Shown piece by piece: positions 1 to 5,143 of a DNA stretch of 5,153 nt. Below the pieces are notes generated by a model. That model was not told the origin of the DNA. It was given only the letters and a program-made list of their open reading frames with translations, and did not search any database. The stretch lies in IMG/VR virus record IMGVR_UViG_2740892271_000002; one strand, 5' to 3'. The first letter of the stretch is position 1. Every line of letters begins with the position of its first letter. This stretch comes from a virus. Taxonomy: Duplodnaviria; Heunggongvirae; Uroviricota; Caudoviricetes. Both the position numbers and the translations under genes were made by a program.

Positions 1-9
1 GCATAAAAA

Positions 10-39
10 AATCCGGAAACAAGTGAGCGTTTCCGGATT
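10..39 (-). terminator. Candidate intrinsic terminator hairpin downstream of the portal gene
   Basis: Perfect inverted repeat: plus 11-20 atccggaaac pairs with 29-38 gtttccggat (extendable by one A-T pair at 10/39), 8-nt loop. On the minus strand the stem is followed directly by a T-run (complement of the A-run at plus 5-10). Lies 33 nt past the portal stop codon (72-74). Confidence 0.35.
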
Positions 40-71
40 CTTACACAGCCACTGGATCGGTCAACTGATCC

Positions 72-1319
72 TTAACTGATCGGCATTACACCACCGGGAC
101 GCGGATTCATATCTTCCAGGTCGCGGCAGTCATTGGAAGAGTAAATTCCCCAGTTGATCCCGGTGGCGTAGGCTTCAAAACGGGACTTCATATCCCCGCG
201 CAGTAACGCCCCGGCGTTAAATTTGGCGTAATAAACGCCCTGCTTACTTTTTCGTACCAGTCCGGTGTTGATCCGCTGTTCGATGCGGGTCAGATACGGC
301 ACCAGTGAATAGTTGATAAATCCCAGCCCCAGCTCTTCGATATTGTTGAAGGTGGCGCGATCGGTGTTCTGCACCATGTGCAACGGCACCCGGAACAGAC
401 GACAGATTTCTTCCAGCTGAAACTTGCGGGTTTCCAGGAACTGACTGTCCTCGGCGTTCAGCGCCATCGACTTCCAGTCCAGCCCCATTTCCAGAATCAT
501 CGGGCGGTGAGCATTGCCAAGCCCCGTGTGACACTCCTCAAAATCTTTCTTCAGACGCTCGTAAGCATCCGGCGTGAGCTTTTGTTCCGTACGCAACACA
601 CCGGATGTCACCGCACCATTACTAAACAACCTGGCACCGTGCTCCTCGGTTGCCGCTGCCAGTGAAATGGCCTCACGCGCATACGCAATGGGATTCAGCC
701 CGACAAGTCCATCCAGCGTCAGGGTGCGCACATGCCAGATTTCATTCTGGGTCAACACATCCACGGAACCATCCGGAAACGTCACCTGATAAACCGGCTG
801 CCACTGGCTGTTCAGCTTCGGTTCCACACAGCCCGGATCTATCGGAAGAAGCTCCACCACTTCTCCCAGTGCCTTTACCTTGTAGGCGTAAAAATTCCCC
901 CGTAGACACAGGCAGACAATAACCAGCTCCCAGAATTCCTGCGGTGTCATGTAGCCATTAGGTTTTGCCGAAACCAACTTATGCAGTCGTTCATCCACCG
1001 CCCGTGTTTTCAGGGTACCGCTGATTTTGTAGAGACTGCAGGGCAGCATACCAACAGACTCTGCCAGCACCCTGACGCAAGAATAGACCGCCGTCAGGCG
1101 CATGGCCCGCTGGCTACTGATCCGCTTTCCGGTATAGGTGTCGTATGACAGCCCGATAGCATCAGCAGTTCTGCTGGCGTGGTCACCGGCACATCGCTTT
1201 TTCGTTGAAATAATCCCGAAAAGAACACTATTTACCTCCGCCGACAGACTGCCGTGTACGGTCGAGATATCGCGCCACCAGCCACGACCAGAACAGGCAC
1301 AGCGCCCCGGCAACAACAA
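72..1319 (-). CDS. Phage portal protein, HK97 family
   Basis: 415-aa ORF directly downstream of terminase large subunit. Sequence has the character of HK97-family portals (e.g. [19 protein letters not shown] near the N-terminus). The 5' end is uncertain: the most upstream start is a TTG triplet (1319/1316/1313) with no Shine-Dalgarno, and the first in-frame ATG is at 1103. Confidence 0.85.
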
Positions 1320-1410
1320 AACCCGCCGGGGGATAAATCAGCCAGGCACCATACGCCAGCAAAAGCGCACCCAGCACGCCCACCAGAGGCGCGAGAATCA
1401 GCATGATCAT
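1228..1410 (-). CDS. Hypothetical small membrane protein (60 aa, two predicted transmembrane helices)
   Basis: ATG at 1410 preceded by GAGGT with 5-nt spacer, 11 nt after the terminase large subunit stop. Codon usage is CTG/GCG/GGC-rich, typical of enterobacterial coding sequence. Two hydrophobic segments separated by YPPAG, with a basic C-terminus. Overlaps the 5' end of the portal ORF in another frame. Confidence 0.5.
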
Positions 1411-1421
1411 AATTACCTCAG

Positions 1422-3155
1422 TTAAAGCGAGCGGATCCCGTAGGACTCAATGTGGTCAGACAGCGTGTCTTCTTTCTCGTACAGCATGGCTCTGCCAACC
1501 GCCATAATCAGCGCAACTGCACCATCGATTTTGTTTTCCGCCTGCTCTTTGACGGGTTTCACCACATCATCGTTACCCGGCATGTTTTTGCCGACCACGT
1601 TGCCGATACACCAGGTCATGATGGGATTGCCGTCATGATGAAAACGTCCCGATTCAATCGCTGCTTCCAGCTCTTTCATCGGATCGGACATATTGGTGAA
1701 GTTCTGGACGATAGTGACGGGATTCAGGTCTTCATCAGCAAGGTCATGTGACAACCCGGTCGCCCCGAAGGGGTCGATGGGTGACTCACTGACCGGGCTG
1801 ATTTTGTTCGCCGCTTTGGCCTCCTCGAGGATGTAGCGATAATCCACCTCCGCACCATCGGTAACGGTCAGAACGCCCATTTCCACCCATTTCTGAAAGC
1901 GTTCGGCTGTCCGTCGATCTTCATTTTTCTCGACGCTGTACACCGTGTCATACGGTACCCAGAAACGCGGGGCCACACTGTAGTAATGCGTTTTACCGTC
2001 AATCTCGCGGGTATAAAGTCGCGCCATGCTGTTCATATCCAGCTTACGCGCCAGGTCAAAGGCCAGAATGCACGGCTGCCCCTCGAACTGCTCAAGGGTC
2101 AGTGATTTATCCTCGCAGCTCTGCCAGCTCACCAAGTTGAAATACGCCGAACGCGCCGACACCCAGATATTGAGGTGTTTTGTTTTAAAGACGTTTGCCA
2201 GACGGGCGTTATTTTTCGCACGCTGCTGCTGACTTAACAAAAATTCGCGATAAACCGACACGCCAATATTTGGATTGGCTTTTTCCAGCACCTGCGGGCC
2301 GGTCCAGTCGTCACCTTCATCAACGGTATAGATGATCCCGAACAGTTCATCGTTAGGCACCGAGCCGTTGAGCATCTCGATGACTTCCCGCCGCTTGTCG
2401 TAGCACGGCCCCTCAATGTTGTACCCGGCGGTGGTGATGGCCCACATCAGTGGCTGACGTCGCGCCCCCATCCCGGTAAGCATTGTGGTATAAAGCGCAT
2501 CGGTGGCATGCTCGTGATATTCATCAACCACGGCACAGTGGGGTGATGAACCATCACCTGGGTTGCCGATCAGCGGTTCAAACCGCGCGCCATCCTCCGG
2601 ACGGTTCATGTTTGAGGCGTTAACCTCAATCCCGAACGCTTCCGTCAGCATGGGTGTGCGTTTACACATCAGTCGCGCCGGGCGAAAGACTTCCCACGCC
2701 TGTTTCTCTGTCGTGGCACCGGAATACACTTCCGCGCCAAACTCGTTATCACAGGCAAAACAATACAGGGCAACACCGGCAGAGATTGCTGATTTGCCGT
2801 TCTTACGGGGGATTTCGGTGTACACCTCCCGGAAGCGGCGCAACCGGGTGCCTTTATTGACCCAGCCAAACGCACAGCAGATCACAAATAGCTGCCACGG
2901 CTCCAGCGTGATGGGCATCCGTTTGAATGCCCACTCCCCCTTGGTGTGCGGCAACAGCTGAATAAATTTCGCGGCCCGTTCAGCCAGGTCCTTGTCGAAG
3001 CGGTAACGAAACGACTTACTTTTTTCCGCCATCAGGTCATCAAGATGGCGCTGGCAGGCCTGAATCACAAACTGGCAGGCAACAATCTTTCCGCGCACGA
3101 CATCCCGGGCATACTGATTTGCAGCATTTACGTTGGGGTAAGATTTCCGGCTCAT
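1422..3155 (-). CDS. Phage terminase large subunit
   Basis: 577-aa ORF. N-terminal region ([23 protein letters not shown]) and a P-loop-like motif (PRKNGKS) are typical of HK97-type large terminases. Its ATG (3155-3153) overlaps the TerS stop as ATGA, indicating translational coupling. Confidence 0.92.
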
Positions 3156-3646
3156 GATTCGATAATTTTCAGAAACGGGTTAGTGGCTTTCTTCTGCCCC
3201 GCCAGGCCAATCAGACGCTGGCGGCTGCTGGGGTCGAGTCCGAGCATTGCCCCCGTGCTGCTCATCTCGGACTCCTGTTCTTTTTTGGCGGTCAGCTCCG
3301 GATTTTTGACCCTGCCGCCCATTGCACCGGTGATGGTGTTGCCCTGTATGGCAATATTTTTCACGGCACGTCGCCAGAACTCATAGGCCACGCACCACCG
3401 CTCAAGTACCGCCAGGTCAGTCACGCACAGCAGGCCCTGACCGCAGAGTTCTTTGGTTGTCAGTTGCCACATGATCGTGGCGAGAGGGAGATCTTCTTCA
3501 GCGAACCACTCTGGTGGCTCAACACCTTTGATGGGCGTAAAAACAGGTTCATCTTTGTTCAGGGCTCGCTTGCCGGGGTTTCCGGCCAGCGCCTTGCGCG
3601 CCGTTGGCTTGGGGCGACGCCCGGAACGCCCCGCCGTTCCAGCCAT
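3152..3646 (-). CDS. Phage terminase small subunit, P27 family
   Basis: N-terminus [34 protein letters not shown] matches the conserved P27-family TerS signature. ATG at 3646 is preceded by AGGAG with an 8-nt spacer. The track's upstream start at 3655 is a GTG overlapping that AGGAG, so 3646 is preferred. Confidence 0.9.
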
Positions 3647-3767
3647 ATGCGGCACTCCTGGTTAAATTTCATTTTTCGCGGGTATAAAAAAACGATGGGG
3701 CGGGCAGTCCGGAAGACGTCAGGTCACAGGGATTTGCCCCGCCCCTCCCTACAAGTGAGAATAATTA
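3647..3767. other. Structured GC-rich intergenic region between HNH and TerS; candidate cos/packaging site (alternatively a terminator-like element)
   Basis: Imperfect inverted repeat ggggcgggca (3697-3706) / tgccccgcccc (3735-3745) flanking a 28-nt spacer that contains the palindromes tccgga and gacgtc. A 7-nt A-run lies at 3685-3691. In HK97-like phages the cos site sits between the HNH gene and the TerS gene. Confidence 0.3.
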
Positions 3768-4118
3768 TCACCGGATTCGTTCGCGCGCTGTTTTCGCTTT
3801 ATGGCAGGGCCAGCACAGACTCTGCAGGTTGCTGTCTGCGTCTGTTCCGCCATGCGCTTTCGGGATGATGTGGTCGACGGTTTTCGCCTCGCTCACCACA
3901 CCGACACGCAGACACAACTGACACAGACCTTTATCGCGCTTCAGAATACGGGCACGAATCACCGTCCATTTTGAGCCATAGCCACGCTGGTGGCGGCTCA
4001 GTCCGCGCTGGTGCTGCACCCAGCCTTCACCGCGATGTTTATCGCAGTAACCCGAACTGTCTGTGGTTGTACCTGCACATCCACGCTTACGGCAGGCACG
4101 TGGGATTAGTGATGGCAT
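3768..4118 (-). CDS. HNH endonuclease (packaging-associated)
   Basis: 116-aa ORF with CQLC ... DHIIP ... SNLQSLCWPCH motifs (HNH/zinc-finger core) plus an N-terminal Cys cluster (CRKRGC...GYCDKH). ATG at 4118 preceded by GAGGT. Position immediately upstream of TerS/TerL is the conserved HNH-terminase arrangement. Confidence 0.9.
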   Translation of the reverse strand: MPSLIPRACRKRGCAGTTTDSSGYCDKHRGEGWVQHQRGLSRHQRGYGSKWTVIRARILKRDKGLCQLCLRVGVVSEAKTVDHIIPKAHGGTDADSNLQSLCWPCHKAKTARERIR

Positions 4119-4160: not shown

Positions 4161-4417
4161 CTACTTAATGCACTGAGTGCGGATATACTCCTGTGCCCCT
4201 TCCAGTTGCATCTGCATCGTCATCAGCCGCTCTCTGAGGGTGAAATAATCCCGTTCAGCGGTGTCTGCCAGTCGGGGGCTGGTTGCATTATCCACGCCGG
4301 AGGCGGTGGTGGCTTCACGCACTGACTGACAGACTGCTTTGATGTGCAACCGACGACGACCAGCGGCAACATCAGCGCGCAGAGTTTCATTTTCAGCTTT
4401 CGCATCAGCTAACTCCT
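4161..4417 (-). CDS. Rz: Rz i-spanin, C-terminal part (5' end lost in the N-run)
   Basis: The 84 visible residues (ELADAKAEN...RRRLHIKAVCQSVREATTASGVDNA...ERDYFTLRERL...) closely match the C-terminal half of lambda Rz as recalled. Stop codon at 4161-4163. Confidence 0.85.
4223..4405 (-). CDS. Rz1: Rz1 o-spanin outer-membrane lipoprotein, nested within Rz in another frame
   Basis: 60 aa, MRKLKMKLCALMLPLVVVGC TSKQSVSQCVKPPPPPAWIMQPAPDWQTPLNGIISPSESG: signal peptide with lipobox (VVGC) and a proline-rich mature region, nearly identical to lambda Rz1 as recalled. ATG at 4405 preceded by AGGAG. Confidence 0.85.
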   Translation of the reverse strand: MRKLKMKLCALMLPLVVVGCTSKQSVSQCVKPPPPPAWIMQPAPDWQTPLNGIISPSESG

Positions 4418-4642
4418 NNNNNNNNNNNNNNNNNNNNNNNNNNNNNNNNNNNNNNNNNNNNNNNNNNNNNNNNNNNNNNNNNNNNNNNNNNNNNNNNNNN
4501 NNNNNNNNNNNNNNNNNNNNNNNNNNNNNNNNNNNNNNNNNNNNNNNNNNNNNNNNNNNNNNNNNNNNNNNNNNNNNNNNNNNNNNNNNNNNNNNNNNNN
4601 NNNNNNNNNNNNNNNNNNNNNNNNNNNNNNNNNNNNNNNNNN
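4418..4642. other. Run of 225 N (assembly gap or masked sequence)
   Basis: Directly visible in the sequence. Interrupts the endolysin and Rz coding regions. Confidence 0.99.
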
Positions 4643-4928
4643 CCGGTATATCGACTTTGATGTACGGGTTAATTTGTCTGGCGACAGTGGCAAGGTCTTT
4701 ATTCAGGAGGGCTTTGCATTCTGCTTCGGTATACGTTTTACCGAGCATGATGTCTTTTCCGGTGTGTCCGTGACATACAGTCCATACACCAATGATATCT
4801 TTGTATGGTATGTAGCTGACACCTTCCAGACCATCGTTACCACCTGGGCCAGTGATTAACACAGATGCTATAGCAACAGCCCCACCACCAATAGCAGCTG
4901 CAACAGCCTTGCGTAATGATGGCGACAT
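4643..4928 (-). CDS. R: SAR endolysin (T4-lysozyme-like muramidase), N-terminal part (3' end lost in the N-run)
   Basis: N-terminus [57 protein letters not shown] has a Gly/Ala-rich signal-anchor-release domain followed by the E...D...T catalytic arrangement of phage 21 R-type lysozymes. Its ATG overlaps the holin stop as TAATG and is preceded by GAGG. Confidence 0.9.
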
Positions 4929-5143
4929 TATTCACCTCTCGCAGCCTTACGCTTGTCTTCTCTTATTTTGAAATACAGATTTGTCAGATAAGTCAGAAGC
5001 CCCAGAAGCAGACTTCCCAGCACACCAATCGCAGCCCACTGTGATGGACTGACCTGATCCAACCACTGCAAAAACCAGTAGCCGGCACTGCCGGCGGAGG
5101 TGCCGTAGGCAATGCCTGTTGATATTTTTTCCATCTGATACAT
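4928..5143 (-). CDS. S: Class II holin (pinholin, phage 21 S-like) with dual-start motif
   Basis: 71 aa, [71 protein letters not shown]: two transmembrane segments, the first Gly/Ala-rich (SAR-like), with a basic C-terminus. Two in-frame ATGs at codons 1 and 4 (5143 and 5134). Confidence 0.9.

Follow-up and report, generated by a model that had tools for sequence, protein, structure and literature searches.

The portal gene in a 5,153-nucleotide stretch of phage DNA, referred to here as the window, is very probably a dead gene: its features are best explained by a true GTG start, a real one-base deletion and an IS4 lesion, all beside a conserved ymfR gene to which the portal start is coupled. 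The window covers the lysis and packaging end of a defective Shigella sonnei prophage of the P27/ST64B/e14 type. The gene order throughout, on the minus strand, is holin, endolysin, Rz, HNH, TerS, TerL, YmfR and portal. The S21-type holin is encoded at 5143..4928, and 3.5 kb separates ymfR from the holin-endolysin-Rz cassette. TerL (577 aa; 1422..3155, minus strand; PF03354 and PF20441) is intact and lies directly upstream of ymfR. Shigella sonnei is the organism in the database entries for both YmfR and the truncated portal product of the window, and the exact 60-aa protein carries the database name 'protein YmfR [Shigella sonnei]'. The finding on the window is ordinary and already annotated.

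Start of the portal gene

The original prediction described a portal without a canonical start, its 5' end overlapped by a small ORF. This description does not hold. A GTG at 1226..1228 (minus strand), in the third reading frame, was overlooked; it is located 6 nt past a GGAGG Shine-Dalgarno sequence (1235..1239, minus strand) and has G1228 in common with the ymfR stop codon TAG, forming a TAGTG junction in which the true overlap of ymfR and portal is 1 nt. The GGAGG near the end of the small ORF had been noticed correctly, but was placed at about 1236..1240 instead of 1239..1235. It lies inside the codons for the C-terminal Gly58 and Gly59 of YmfR, both invariant in the alignment. The GTG-1228 frame encodes the portal N-terminus that is annotated and conserved among relatives, in which the annotated portal CDS begins at the last base of the ymfR stop. 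Among the 111 Enterobacterales loci collected, a start at the ymfR stop opens a full-length portal in 80 (79 with 408-413 codons and one with 452). These 80 intact portals begin with GTG in 73 cases and ATG in 7, and the N-termini in intact loci read VFFSGLFQ or MFF(P/S)GMF. The junction in distant relatives is TGATG or TAATG, with GGAGG or GGGGG ahead of it; across all junction types the same Shine-Dalgarno position is filled by GGAGG, GGGAGG or GGGGG. The portal start codon is GTG in the window and ATG in the distant relatives.

In the intact relatives, ymfR and portal would form a translationally coupled pair, the Shine-Dalgarno sequence of the portal being contained in the ymfR Gly-Gly codons and its start sharing a base with the ymfR stop. 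Judging from the arrangement of the junction, the coupling probably acts by termination-reinitiation or by exposure of the Shine-Dalgarno sequence by ribosomes translating ymfR. As grounds against itself, the original prediction had named relatives with a portal start aligned to this region and evidence of a frameshift; both were found.

A one-base deletion in the portal gene

The portal body (89..1165, minus strand; codons 22-380 of 413) is out of frame with the GTG start and has no start codon of its own. It belongs to the HK97 family, with 358.8 bits against PF04860 (E=3e-107, cut-off 39.1) and 263.3 bits against TIGR01537 (E=3e-78, cut-off 112). Alignments with seven relatives reveal a 1-nt deletion at 1166..1167 (minus strand), where one G of CTG-GCT at codon 21/22 has been lost: the sequence of the window at this site is CTGCTGATG, i.e. 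with no extra G, and one extra base is present in all seven aligned relatives. Differences near the deletion are synonymous when read in the GTG-1228 frame, and putting one G back gives an open frame of 380 codons. The loss at 1167/1166 falls 62 nt into the portal gene, so that ribosomes starting at GTG-1228 would stop after 44 codons; the present product (1094..1228, minus strand) comprises 21 authentic portal codons and 23 out-of-frame codons, followed by TGA (1096..1094). The remaining 359 portal codons stand in another frame without a start.

The identical 37-nt deletion allele, with the same 44-codon GTG product, was found in 14 other distinct loci (6 IMG/VR contigs and 8 NCBI genomes), and carriers of the allele include chromosomes of 4.3-5.0 Mb, several of them closed. 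The intact counterpart allele with the extra G is present in two loci (L009 and L016). A lineage-specific portal of 343 aa is predicted by gene callers for at least 1000 contigs with the organism name Shigella sonnei; this 'portal protein' is a pseudogene fragment. Further decay is seen in L022 and L024, in which TerL is split. Neither the deletion allele nor the intact forms were found in the species-representative genome collection, where S. sonnei has no separate representative. We regard the deletion as a real, fixed pseudogene mutation on the strength of its repeated appearance in different assemblies, many of which belong to a single clone; the closed chromosomes agree. The earlier suggestion of a frameshift in the assembly was therefore correct as to the frameshift, but the frameshift is not an artefact, given the identical deletion in the other loci and closed chromosomes.

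The 415-aa ORF that had been taken for the portal is a composite. As originally reported, its frame opens at 1337 and contains no ATG or GTG before codon 73. It is closed by TGA 1340..1338; codon 73 (1103) is its first ATG, and a GTG does not occur until codon 84. The only earlier starts, TTG at 1319, 1316 and 1313, have no Shine-Dalgarno sequence. The 5' part consists of about 30 out-of-frame codons across ymfR and 21 out-of-frame portal N-terminal codons. It is followed by the true portal body from codon 52, and then by 5 codons and a stop from IS4. The segment at 1229..1337 (minus strand), which holds the three TTG codons, is a spurious 5' extension in which the portal-body frame is open by chance across the 3' half of ymfR. 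Residues 1-51 show no portal homology with Pfam, TIGRFAM or PHROG profiles. The comparison of the ORF with portal families, recommended earlier to find where conservation begins, gives a PHROG 12 match from residue 52, exactly where the base was lost. It is the frameshift that creates the false appearance of a '90-nt overlap' and a 'missing start', because the portal-body frame stays open backwards into ymfR after it. A single lineage-specific deletion can thus mimic overlapping genes and non-canonical initiation convincingly.

IS4 insertion in the portal gene

Positions 1..88 (minus strand) represent the left terminus of IS4, on the transposase side. The element sits in portal codon 381 and is oriented like the portal, and the terminus is identical in 88/88 nt to the end of IS4 of E. 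coli ME8067. The 12-bp target site GTCCCGGTGGTG (89..100, minus strand) recurs on the far side of the element: the right-hand junction, 'CTGGCATTA|GTCCCGGTGGTGATG', was found in L015 and establishes the 12-bp target duplication. L015 itself, in which a partial IS4 comes after a portal 3' end free of the IS, may be an assembly chimera, and nothing but this right-hand junction was used from it. In closed genomes, a 442-aa Nterm_IS4/DDE_Tnp_1 transposase comes next, outside the window, and is followed by chromosomal raiA-pheA or bamE-recN. The terminal sequence, a target duplication within 11-13 bp and a DDE transposase together identify the element as IS4. Since IS4 cuts the gene at codon 381, the stop of the 415-aa ORF falls inside the element; the ORF owes its last 5 codons and its TAA (74..72) to the IS4 terminus. 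This second lesion removes the portal C-terminus and cuts the gene off from the remainder of the head module. With the 1-nt deletion and the IS4 insertion, no uninterrupted ORF runs from the conserved start to the C-terminus, and the portal is therefore a dead gene; ymfR is intact. IS4 insertional pseudogenes in Shigella show the same IS4-identical terminus and 12-bp duplication, and there is nothing unusual about the one in the window. The insertion truncating the portal 3' end had been missed when the sequence was first read.

Alternative readings of the portal gene

A portal 5' end that is really intact, with a frameshift owed to faulty sequencing or assembly, is very improbable. The missing base does belong to a GG pair, the window resembles a short-read contig broken in an IS element, and a systematic error is conceivable where many carriers of the allele are one clone. 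However, the same 37-nt allele is carried by the other 14 loci from different assemblies, large chromosomes included, and the same truncated 343-aa product is called on the S. sonnei contigs mentioned above. The gene also bears a second, independent lesion (IS4), and the split TerL in some genomes adds to the decay.

More improbable still would be a functional portal of reduced length that starts at ATG 1103, the 343-aa product of gene callers. The Pfam and TIGRFAM profiles begin nearby (ORF residues 69-77), and the ORF is annotated automatically in many S. sonnei genomes. However, ATG 1103 has no Shine-Dalgarno sequence, and its product is short of 42 conserved residues at the N-terminus and of the last 33, in place of which IS4 gives 5 foreign ones. 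In addition, no head could be built, because chromosomal genes, and not protease and capsid genes, come after IS4 in the closed genomes.

We give almost no credence to non-canonical initiation, either at TTG 1319..1313 or by reinitiation inside ymfR, of a 415-aa portal overlapping ymfR. The frame is open from 1337 with its three TTG codons, but these have no Shine-Dalgarno sequence, portal homology begins exactly at the deletion, and the C-terminus and stop of the ORF derive from IS4. Comparison with relatives refutes the TTG start: they begin the portal at a GTG or ATG overlapping the ymfR stop and have no long ymfR overlap, because their portal body is the GTG frame. What endures of the earlier idea of coupled, non-canonical initiation is the coupling, through the 1-nt stop/start overlap; intact relatives initiate in another frame and in the canonical way, at a GTG or ATG preceded by GGAGG or GGGGG. 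Programmed recoding, by which the -1 frame change would regulate portal synthesis, is just as implausible. Programmed frameshifts occur in phage morphogenesis genes, e.g. tail chaperone G/GT, and provide a precedent, but there is no slippery heptamer at GAA-CTG-CTG-ATG and no conserved two-frame arrangement: none of the 80 intact relatives, all single-frame, has the frame change. There is also an allele that matches except for having the extra G, and the frame change is distributed as a single mutation specific to one lineage would be.

The ymfR gene and its distribution

The 60-codon ymfR gene (1228..1410, minus strand) is intact, running from ATG 1410..1408 to TAG 1230..1228, and encodes a two-helix inner-membrane protein. 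The ORF, its Shine-Dalgarno sequence and its two hydrophobic segments agree with the original prediction. A strong Shine-Dalgarno sequence (GAGG at 1416..1419, minus strand, extended to GAGGT) is located 5 nt upstream of the ATG, and the gene begins 11 nt after the TerL stop TAA (1424..1422); this TAA-n-GAGG-n-ATG layout recurs in distant relatives. The two hydrophobic helices are evident as Kyte-Doolittle segments 1-26 and 24-46, and as helices 2-25 and 27-57 in an AlphaFold2 model (pLDDT 72.5). With a GRAVY hydropathy of +1.16, the protein is a two-TM hydrophobic hairpin of about 60 aa with a short Pro-containing turn between the helices. Its gene is located between TerL and an HK97-family portal, with the stop overlapping or abutting the portal start. 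These are characters of the YmfR family. In a profile search, residues 1-55 matched PHROG 502 (E=2.8e-28), which the PHROG listing places under 'moron, auxiliary metabolic gene and host takeover'. The K-12 protein (e14, b1150) bears the label IPR020297, and the annotation 'protein YmfR' is found in about 1390 E. coli records. Pfam and NCBIfam searches gave no family for YmfR, PADLOC gave no defence match, and in the literature searched ymfR appears in gene lists only, with nothing useful obtained for IPR020297 or the ST64B 'integral membrane protein'.

ymfR is a genuine gene under protein-level purifying selection. It is intact in 111/111 collected loci, its dN/dS is 0.11-0.20 against relatives with dS of 1-1.9 (near saturation), and its pN/pS is 0.25 (26 unique genes); GC3 is 67%, vs 64-65% for TerL and portal. 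Of the earlier proposal that the small ORF is an inserted gene, a possible moron, next to an N-terminally shorter portal, the genuine, selected gene (dN/dS 0.1-0.2) can be kept, but ymfR is not an inserted moron and the portal is not naturally shorter. Insertion was rejected on three observations: the slot is occupied in all the Enterobacterales loci, ymfR has no promoter or terminator of its own, and the e14 copy is co-induced with prophage genes.

The homologues of the small ORF that had been sought between TerL and portal in related prophages were found in all 111 Enterobacterales loci. The same slot is occupied in the distant proteobacterial and metagenomic relatives examined, again coupled to the portal start, and the YmfR-portal arrangement extends over Escherichia, Klebsiella, Enterobacter, Buttiauxella and unrelated metagenomic phages to E ~1e-5. 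It is noted that the best 80 related loci by YmfR alignment are all 97-100% identical, and that the distant contexts come from exact-protein look-ups. There are 166 clusters homologous to YmfR, with a length of 59-61 aa in nearly all, and 405 YmfR-family clusters at 50% identity; the gene is uncalled in several phage records. In the same genomes, YmfR is 58-68% identical vs 80-85% for the portal, and it diverges faster than TerL too. An Enterobacterales-only YmfR profile did not separate the slot ORFs of Vibrio K343 and Morganella from an S21 holin control (5.2 vs 6.0 bits), and therefore no homology is claimed from it. A broader 126-sequence profile with segment-preserving shuffles separates K343, Ralstonia, Burkholderia and Morganella, with Vibrio Va_178/90 marginal. 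YmfR is absent only from modules with portals <40% identical. HK97-like mEp235 and mEpX2, and phages of Rhizobium, Xanthomonas and Agrobacterium, assemble the same kind of portal without a YmfR-like gene, so that YmfR is not universally required.

Possible roles of YmfR

We infer that YmfR is expressed late, forms a hairpin in the inner membrane (N-in, C-in) and acts with the head/portal module, and is not a lysogenic-conversion moron. Tentatively, its putative role may be to aid portal or procapsid assembly at the membrane. With still more reserve, YmfR-like proteins could be viewed as a dedicated portal-coupled inner-membrane factor in a large HK97-type clade of gamma- and beta-proteobacterial phages, tethering or nucleating portal, procapsid or packaging-motor assembly at the cytoplasmic membrane; the ribosomes that make them would translate the portal next. 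If this is true, the YmfR family is not accessory and is larger than annotation shows. T4 gp40 is a membrane protein that assists assembly of the gp20 portal, and to our knowledge a membrane role in portal assembly has so far been described only for this pair; we also know of no need for such a factor in HK97 itself. As a phage inner-membrane protein linked to the portal, gp40 serves as a model for the speculative role of YmfR, by functional analogy only.

It is possible, though doubtful, that YmfR is instead a moron-type accessory protein (for superinfection exclusion, host modulation or holin-like modulation of lysis) with no head role, held in its slot by linkage only. Its PHROG category, its faster divergence and the many HK97-type modules without it are consistent with this reading, as is the survival of intact ymfR beside dead portals in both S. 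sonnei and K-12 e14. An autonomous transcription unit and patchy presence among close relatives, which would mark a moron, are not seen: with 11 nt to the TerL stop and the 1-nt portal overlap, no minus-strand terminator-like site and no promoter-like site on either strand is present in 1000-1800, and ymfR occurs in all 111 loci of the clade. The fixed position, the 1-nt stop/start overlap and the portal Shine-Dalgarno sequence within ymfR codons hold across genera and metagenomic phages. In addition, e14 ymfR would not be expressed constitutively: in step with other genes of e14, its mRNA goes up by about 4.5 log2-fold in SOS-linked conditions.

The shape of YmfR also resembles that of the class II holins or pinholins (S21) in size (about 60 aa), two TM helices, predicted N-in/C-in topology and a charged C-terminal tail. 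However, ymfR lies outside the lysis cassette, 3.5 kb away, and YmfR has no Pfam holin match; the S21-like holin of the window scores 2.4 bits, i.e. background, against the YmfR-family profile, and no holin or defence profile was matched.

Related prophages and their annotation

The e14 element of E. coli K-12 has the same gene order as the window (aaaE, a TerL pseudogene; ymfR, b1150; beeE, a portal fragment). The two YmfR sequences are the same 60-aa protein, in one 90%-identity cluster, and in e14 as well the portal CDS begins on the last ymfR base and an intact ymfR stands beside a portal that has decayed, in this case to 157 codons. The damage is not the same: in e14 the portal is truncated or fused and the terminase chimeric, whereas the window has an intact TerL, the deletion at codon 21/22 and IS4 in codon 381. 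phiP27 (L36-L37-L38), ST64B (sb2-sb3-sb4), SfII, SfI and SfIV are 89-95% identical to the window in DNA over TerL-ymfR-portal and share its GGAGGTAAATAGTG junction exactly. In these phages the small gene is annotated as 'putative integral membrane protein' or 'membrane protein'. They are functional phages with an intact 413-aa portal, in contrast to the frameshifted and IS4-interrupted copy in the window.

A clean annotation rule follows for phages of this group: the final base of the ymfR stop is the first of the portal, whose ribosome-binding site is contained in the ymfR Gly-Gly codons. By this rule several records are wrong. The ST64B portal is annotated from ATA, and the small gene is omitted in SfIV and in Burkholderia vB_E438. 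In other phage records the YmfR homologue is called 'head-tail joining protein W'. Lambda gpW, a soluble head-completion protein, has the same position, between terminase A and portal B. YmfR, a two-TM hydrophobic hairpin, has no detectable similarity to it, and the 'W' label is a positional mis-annotation.

A conserved GTG start for the portal gene

All genes of the window lie on the minus strand, in the order S21-type holin (5143..4928), endolysin and Rz (4928..4161, partly masked, Ns at 4418-4642), HNH endonuclease (4118..3768), TerS (3655..3152), TerL (3155..1422), the 60-aa ORF ymfR (1410..1228) and a portal-like ORF (1319..72). The sequence features described in the original prediction were all present on re-inspection. 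The 60-aa ORF has GAGGT 5 nt upstream of its ATG. The portal-body frame, followed as a 415-aa ORF opening at 1337, runs upstream as far as a TGA (1340..1338). In it, early start-like codons are limited to TTG at 1319, 1316 and 1313, all lacking a Shine-Dalgarno sequence, and the first ATG is at 1103 (codon 73). A GGAGG is found at 1239..1235. What had been missed is a GTG (1228..1226) in the third frame, 6 nt past this GGAGG, whose first base is the last base of the TAG stop of the 60-aa ORF (TAGTG). The ORF opened by this GTG has 44 codons.

In the phiP27, ST64B, SfII and E. coli records, the first base of the portal CDS coincides with the final base of the ymfR stop codon, equivalent to window 1228, as it does in e14, the cryptic prophage of K-12. 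Among 111 collected loci containing ymfR, the overlapping start leads to a full-length portal ORF in 80 (GTG in 73, ATG in 7), which is 408-413 codons long in 79 and 452 in one; in 7 further loci the portal ORF reaches the locus end. Distant relatives have a TGATG or TAATG junction with an ATG start, GGAGG, GGGAGG or GGGGG upstream, and the same portal N-terminus, MFF(P/S)GMF. Since relatives annotate the start at this position and it opens a full-length ORF in 80 of the 111 loci, the portal start is canonical, namely the conserved GTG-1228 with its GGAGG, and the claim that no such start exists is not upheld. The ST64B RefSeq record (NC_004313, 1770) erroneously places the portal start 3 nt too far upstream, on an ATA codon.

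Disruption of the portal gene by a deletion and IS4

DNA alignments to seven relatives reveal one base missing in the window, a G of the CTG-GC(G/T) stretch in codon 21/22, located at or between 1167/1166. With one G put back, 380 unbroken codons extend to the 3' junction. The neighbouring differences are synonymous in the GTG-1228 frame (AGT>AGC, GAC>GAT, GAG>GAA, GCG>GCT) aside from one Ala>Val change, indicating a diverged, once-functional allele hit by a single deletion. Portal profile homology in the 415-aa ORF begins at residue 52 at the earliest (PHROG 12; 69 for TIGR01537 and 77 for Pfam PF04860), and residue 52 is the deletion site. Codons 1-51 thus contain no portal sequence and represent an out-of-frame reading of ymfR and the portal N-terminal region. 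The frameshift accounts for both the missing start and the long ymfR/portal overlap proposed originally, the actual overlap being 1 nt. A programmed-frameshift reading of the frame change was rejected on a defining test.

Portal homology ends at window 89, and positions 88..1 match the transposase-proximal IS4 terminus (TAATGCCGATCAG...) at every base. The terminus of the 415-aa ORF (...GG-VMPIS-stop, TAA 74..72) is within IS4, and the insertion point is codon 381 of 413. The other IS4 junction, in a related contig, reads CTGGCATTA up to the junction and GTCCCGGTGGTGATG beyond it, which defines a 12-bp target duplication (window 100..89). This contig, L015 (IMGVR_UViG_2663762996_000003, 1-5700), has the frameshifted portal with an unbroken 3' end into the protease gene; there follow an internal IS4 part and the IS4 right end, and after the 12-bp target duplication come the portal 3' end, protease and capsid. 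L015 reflects either misassembly of two prophage copies into a chimera or a rearrangement mediated by IS4, and suggests that the prophage's other half is still present in at least one genome.

Six IMG/VR contigs derived from different source genomes matched the 37-nt deletion allele in an exact-pattern scan. Over 4.3-4.4 kb, five of the six are 100% identical to the window, and in three the spacing between the GTG and IS4 is also as in the window. The intact 38-nt form occurs in two other contigs, with a portal of 413 aa in one (L016) and running past the contig end in the other (L009). The window's exact YmfR was traced to eight NCBI assemblies (contigs 4.3-5.0 Mb, several closed chromosomes), all eight with the deletion allele and a truncated portal followed by IS4 transposase. 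Beyond the transposase lie chromosomal genes, either raiA-pheL-pheA-tyrA-aroF or, after an IS3-family element, bamE-recN, which marks the prophage element as a remnant. Because the same allele recurs across these contigs and assemblies, including closed chromosomes, the frameshift suspected originally is real and its attribution to assembly is not upheld; judged from the genome sequences, the mutation is inherited and fixed in an organism that is clonal and rich in IS elements.

Gene callers in those assemblies choose ATG-1103, giving a 343-aa 'portal protein', and at least 1000 contigs named Shigella sonnei carry an identical product; the database name of the window YmfR is 'protein YmfR [Shigella sonnei]'. 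TerL is split in some S. sonnei genomes, with 90 + 498 aa called in L022 (4257-5989) and only the 498-aa fragment in L024 (4493-5989), which shows ongoing decay of the remnant. In all S. sonnei genomes with disrupted TerL, ymfR is intact. The window portal matches its family by sequence and is not an intact gene. The finding is one of ordinary processes, a point deletion and an IS insertion in a decaying prophage, plus an already annotated gene. The closest known case is e14, which also keeps an intact ymfR (b1150), flanked there by a terminase pseudogene and by beeE, a portal fragment; the nearest functional relatives are phiP27 L36-L38 and ST64B sb2-sb4. Portal pseudogenes of independent origin are found directly 3' of intact ymfR in L049, L084, L100 and L130 (e14), with premature stops after 312, 48, 157 and 157 codons, respectively.

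YmfR as a conserved family

The remaining interest is YmfR itself, a widely conserved, portal-coupled, predicted membrane hairpin whose role is putative. The ORF is annotated 'protein YmfR' in ~1390 complete E. coli records, between 'terminase large subunit' and 'phage portal protein', and '(putative integral) membrane protein' in phiP27, ST64B and SfII. Hydropathy gives two hydrophobic segments, and the AlphaFold2 model has two helices with a break at Tyr26-Pro27-Pro28. The family comprises 166 clusters by single-sequence search, 356 by profile search of a word-indexed database and 405 at 50% identity by exhaustive search, nearly all 50-70 aa long, and the window YmfR belongs to it by every membership test. 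In the alignment, the conserved core starts M-(I/F)-L-x-I-L-(A/T), continues with (S/A)-(Y/F) and (F/Y), and ends G-x-L-C-L-x-W-S-W-L-V before a variable basic tail. The C-terminal Gly-Gly is invariant, and its codons form the portal ribosome-binding site, so that ymfR and portal are interlocked at the nucleotide level.

The gene is intact in 111 of 111 loci and under purifying selection (dN/dS 0.11-0.20 against relatives, with synonymous sites near saturation). YmfR diverges faster than the portal of the same genomes (58-68% versus 80-85% identity), and ymfR keeps company with the portal even beside a TerL of a different type (40% identity, L105). Homologues occupy the slot between TerL and portal in the 111 loci and in distant phages. 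The order HNH, TerS, TerL, YmfR, portal, S78 protease, capsid is kept in Escherichia, Klebsiella, Enterobacter and Buttiauxella, and for weak profile matches (to E ~2e-5) in unrelated metagenomic phages, where the YmfR and portal genes overlap by 1 nt except in L120, in which 3 nt separate them. One such phage has a 611-aa portal with a C-terminal ADP-ribosyltransferase domain, PF03496 (L118 3686-5521; L119 3320-5155).

Among phage records with portals <40% identical, a small two-helix ORF fills the slot in Burkholderia vB_E438 (unannotated), Ralstonia YO104_1, Vibrio K343, Vibrio Va_178/90_p41 and Morganella IME1369_02, and is absent from HK97-like mEp235 and mEpX2 and from Rhizobium, Xanthomonas, Agrobacterium, Bacillus and Clostridium phages. 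Against a 126-sequence YmfR profile, the Burkholderia, Ralstonia, K343 and Morganella ORFs score 42.9, 25.3, 21.0 and 15.3 bits, with 0-1 of 1000 shuffles preserving the hydrophobic segments scoring as high; the negative controls, S21 holin and Rz1, score at background. By these profile scores the four are YmfR homologues, and the Va_178/90 ORF is marginal. It should be mentioned that the ORF is uncalled in SfIV (NC_022749) and vB_E438 (L116, ~620-800), and that four records (H30, H34, H35, H43) wrongly give the ORF the name 'head-tail joining protein W', carried over from lambda on the basis of position. OR844959.1 (1764 bp, 'Enterococcus phage Efm 3-10') shares 97.3% identity with the enterobacterial TerL-ymfR region and is probably mislabelled or a contaminant.

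Possible roles of YmfR

Stop/start overlaps occur throughout the late operon, with 1 nt common to the holin stop and endolysin ATG (4928), 4 nt between TerS and TerL (3152-3155) and 1 nt between ymfR and portal (1228), an arrangement that suggests serial translational coupling of lysis and packaging genes. The 255-aa ORF at 4161..4928 is an artefact of 225 masked bases (4418-4642); unmasked S. sonnei genomes have two genes there, a 165-aa lysozyme and a 154-aa Rz (Phage_lysis), with an Rz1-like 60-aa lipoprotein ORF (4405..4223, MRKLKMKLCALMLPLVVVGC...) embedded in another frame.

In T4, assembly of the gp20 portal is helped by the membrane protein gp40. By analogy, YmfR might have a membrane-associated role in portal or procapsid assembly, a tentative reading that we weakly favour; an accessory function, in exclusion or in modulating lysis, has roughly the same probability. 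A literature search found no functional study of ymfR. The moron option raised originally failed a defining test. The gene ymfR lacks both a promoter-like site and a same-strand terminator-like site of its own, K-12 ymfR mRNA rises with other e14 genes under SOS-linked conditions, and the family has no match among Pfam, NCBIfam and PADLOC models, all of which speak against a classical moron; its slot is also constant across the clade. The evidence argues for a late gene within the head-gene translational unit. A holin reading was rejected on a defining test.

A transcriptomic study (PMC4213855) describes the 'ST64B portal gene STMUK_2003' with a predicted signal peptide or surface trafficking; its gene model may include, or be confused with, the hydrophobic YmfR homologue sb3.
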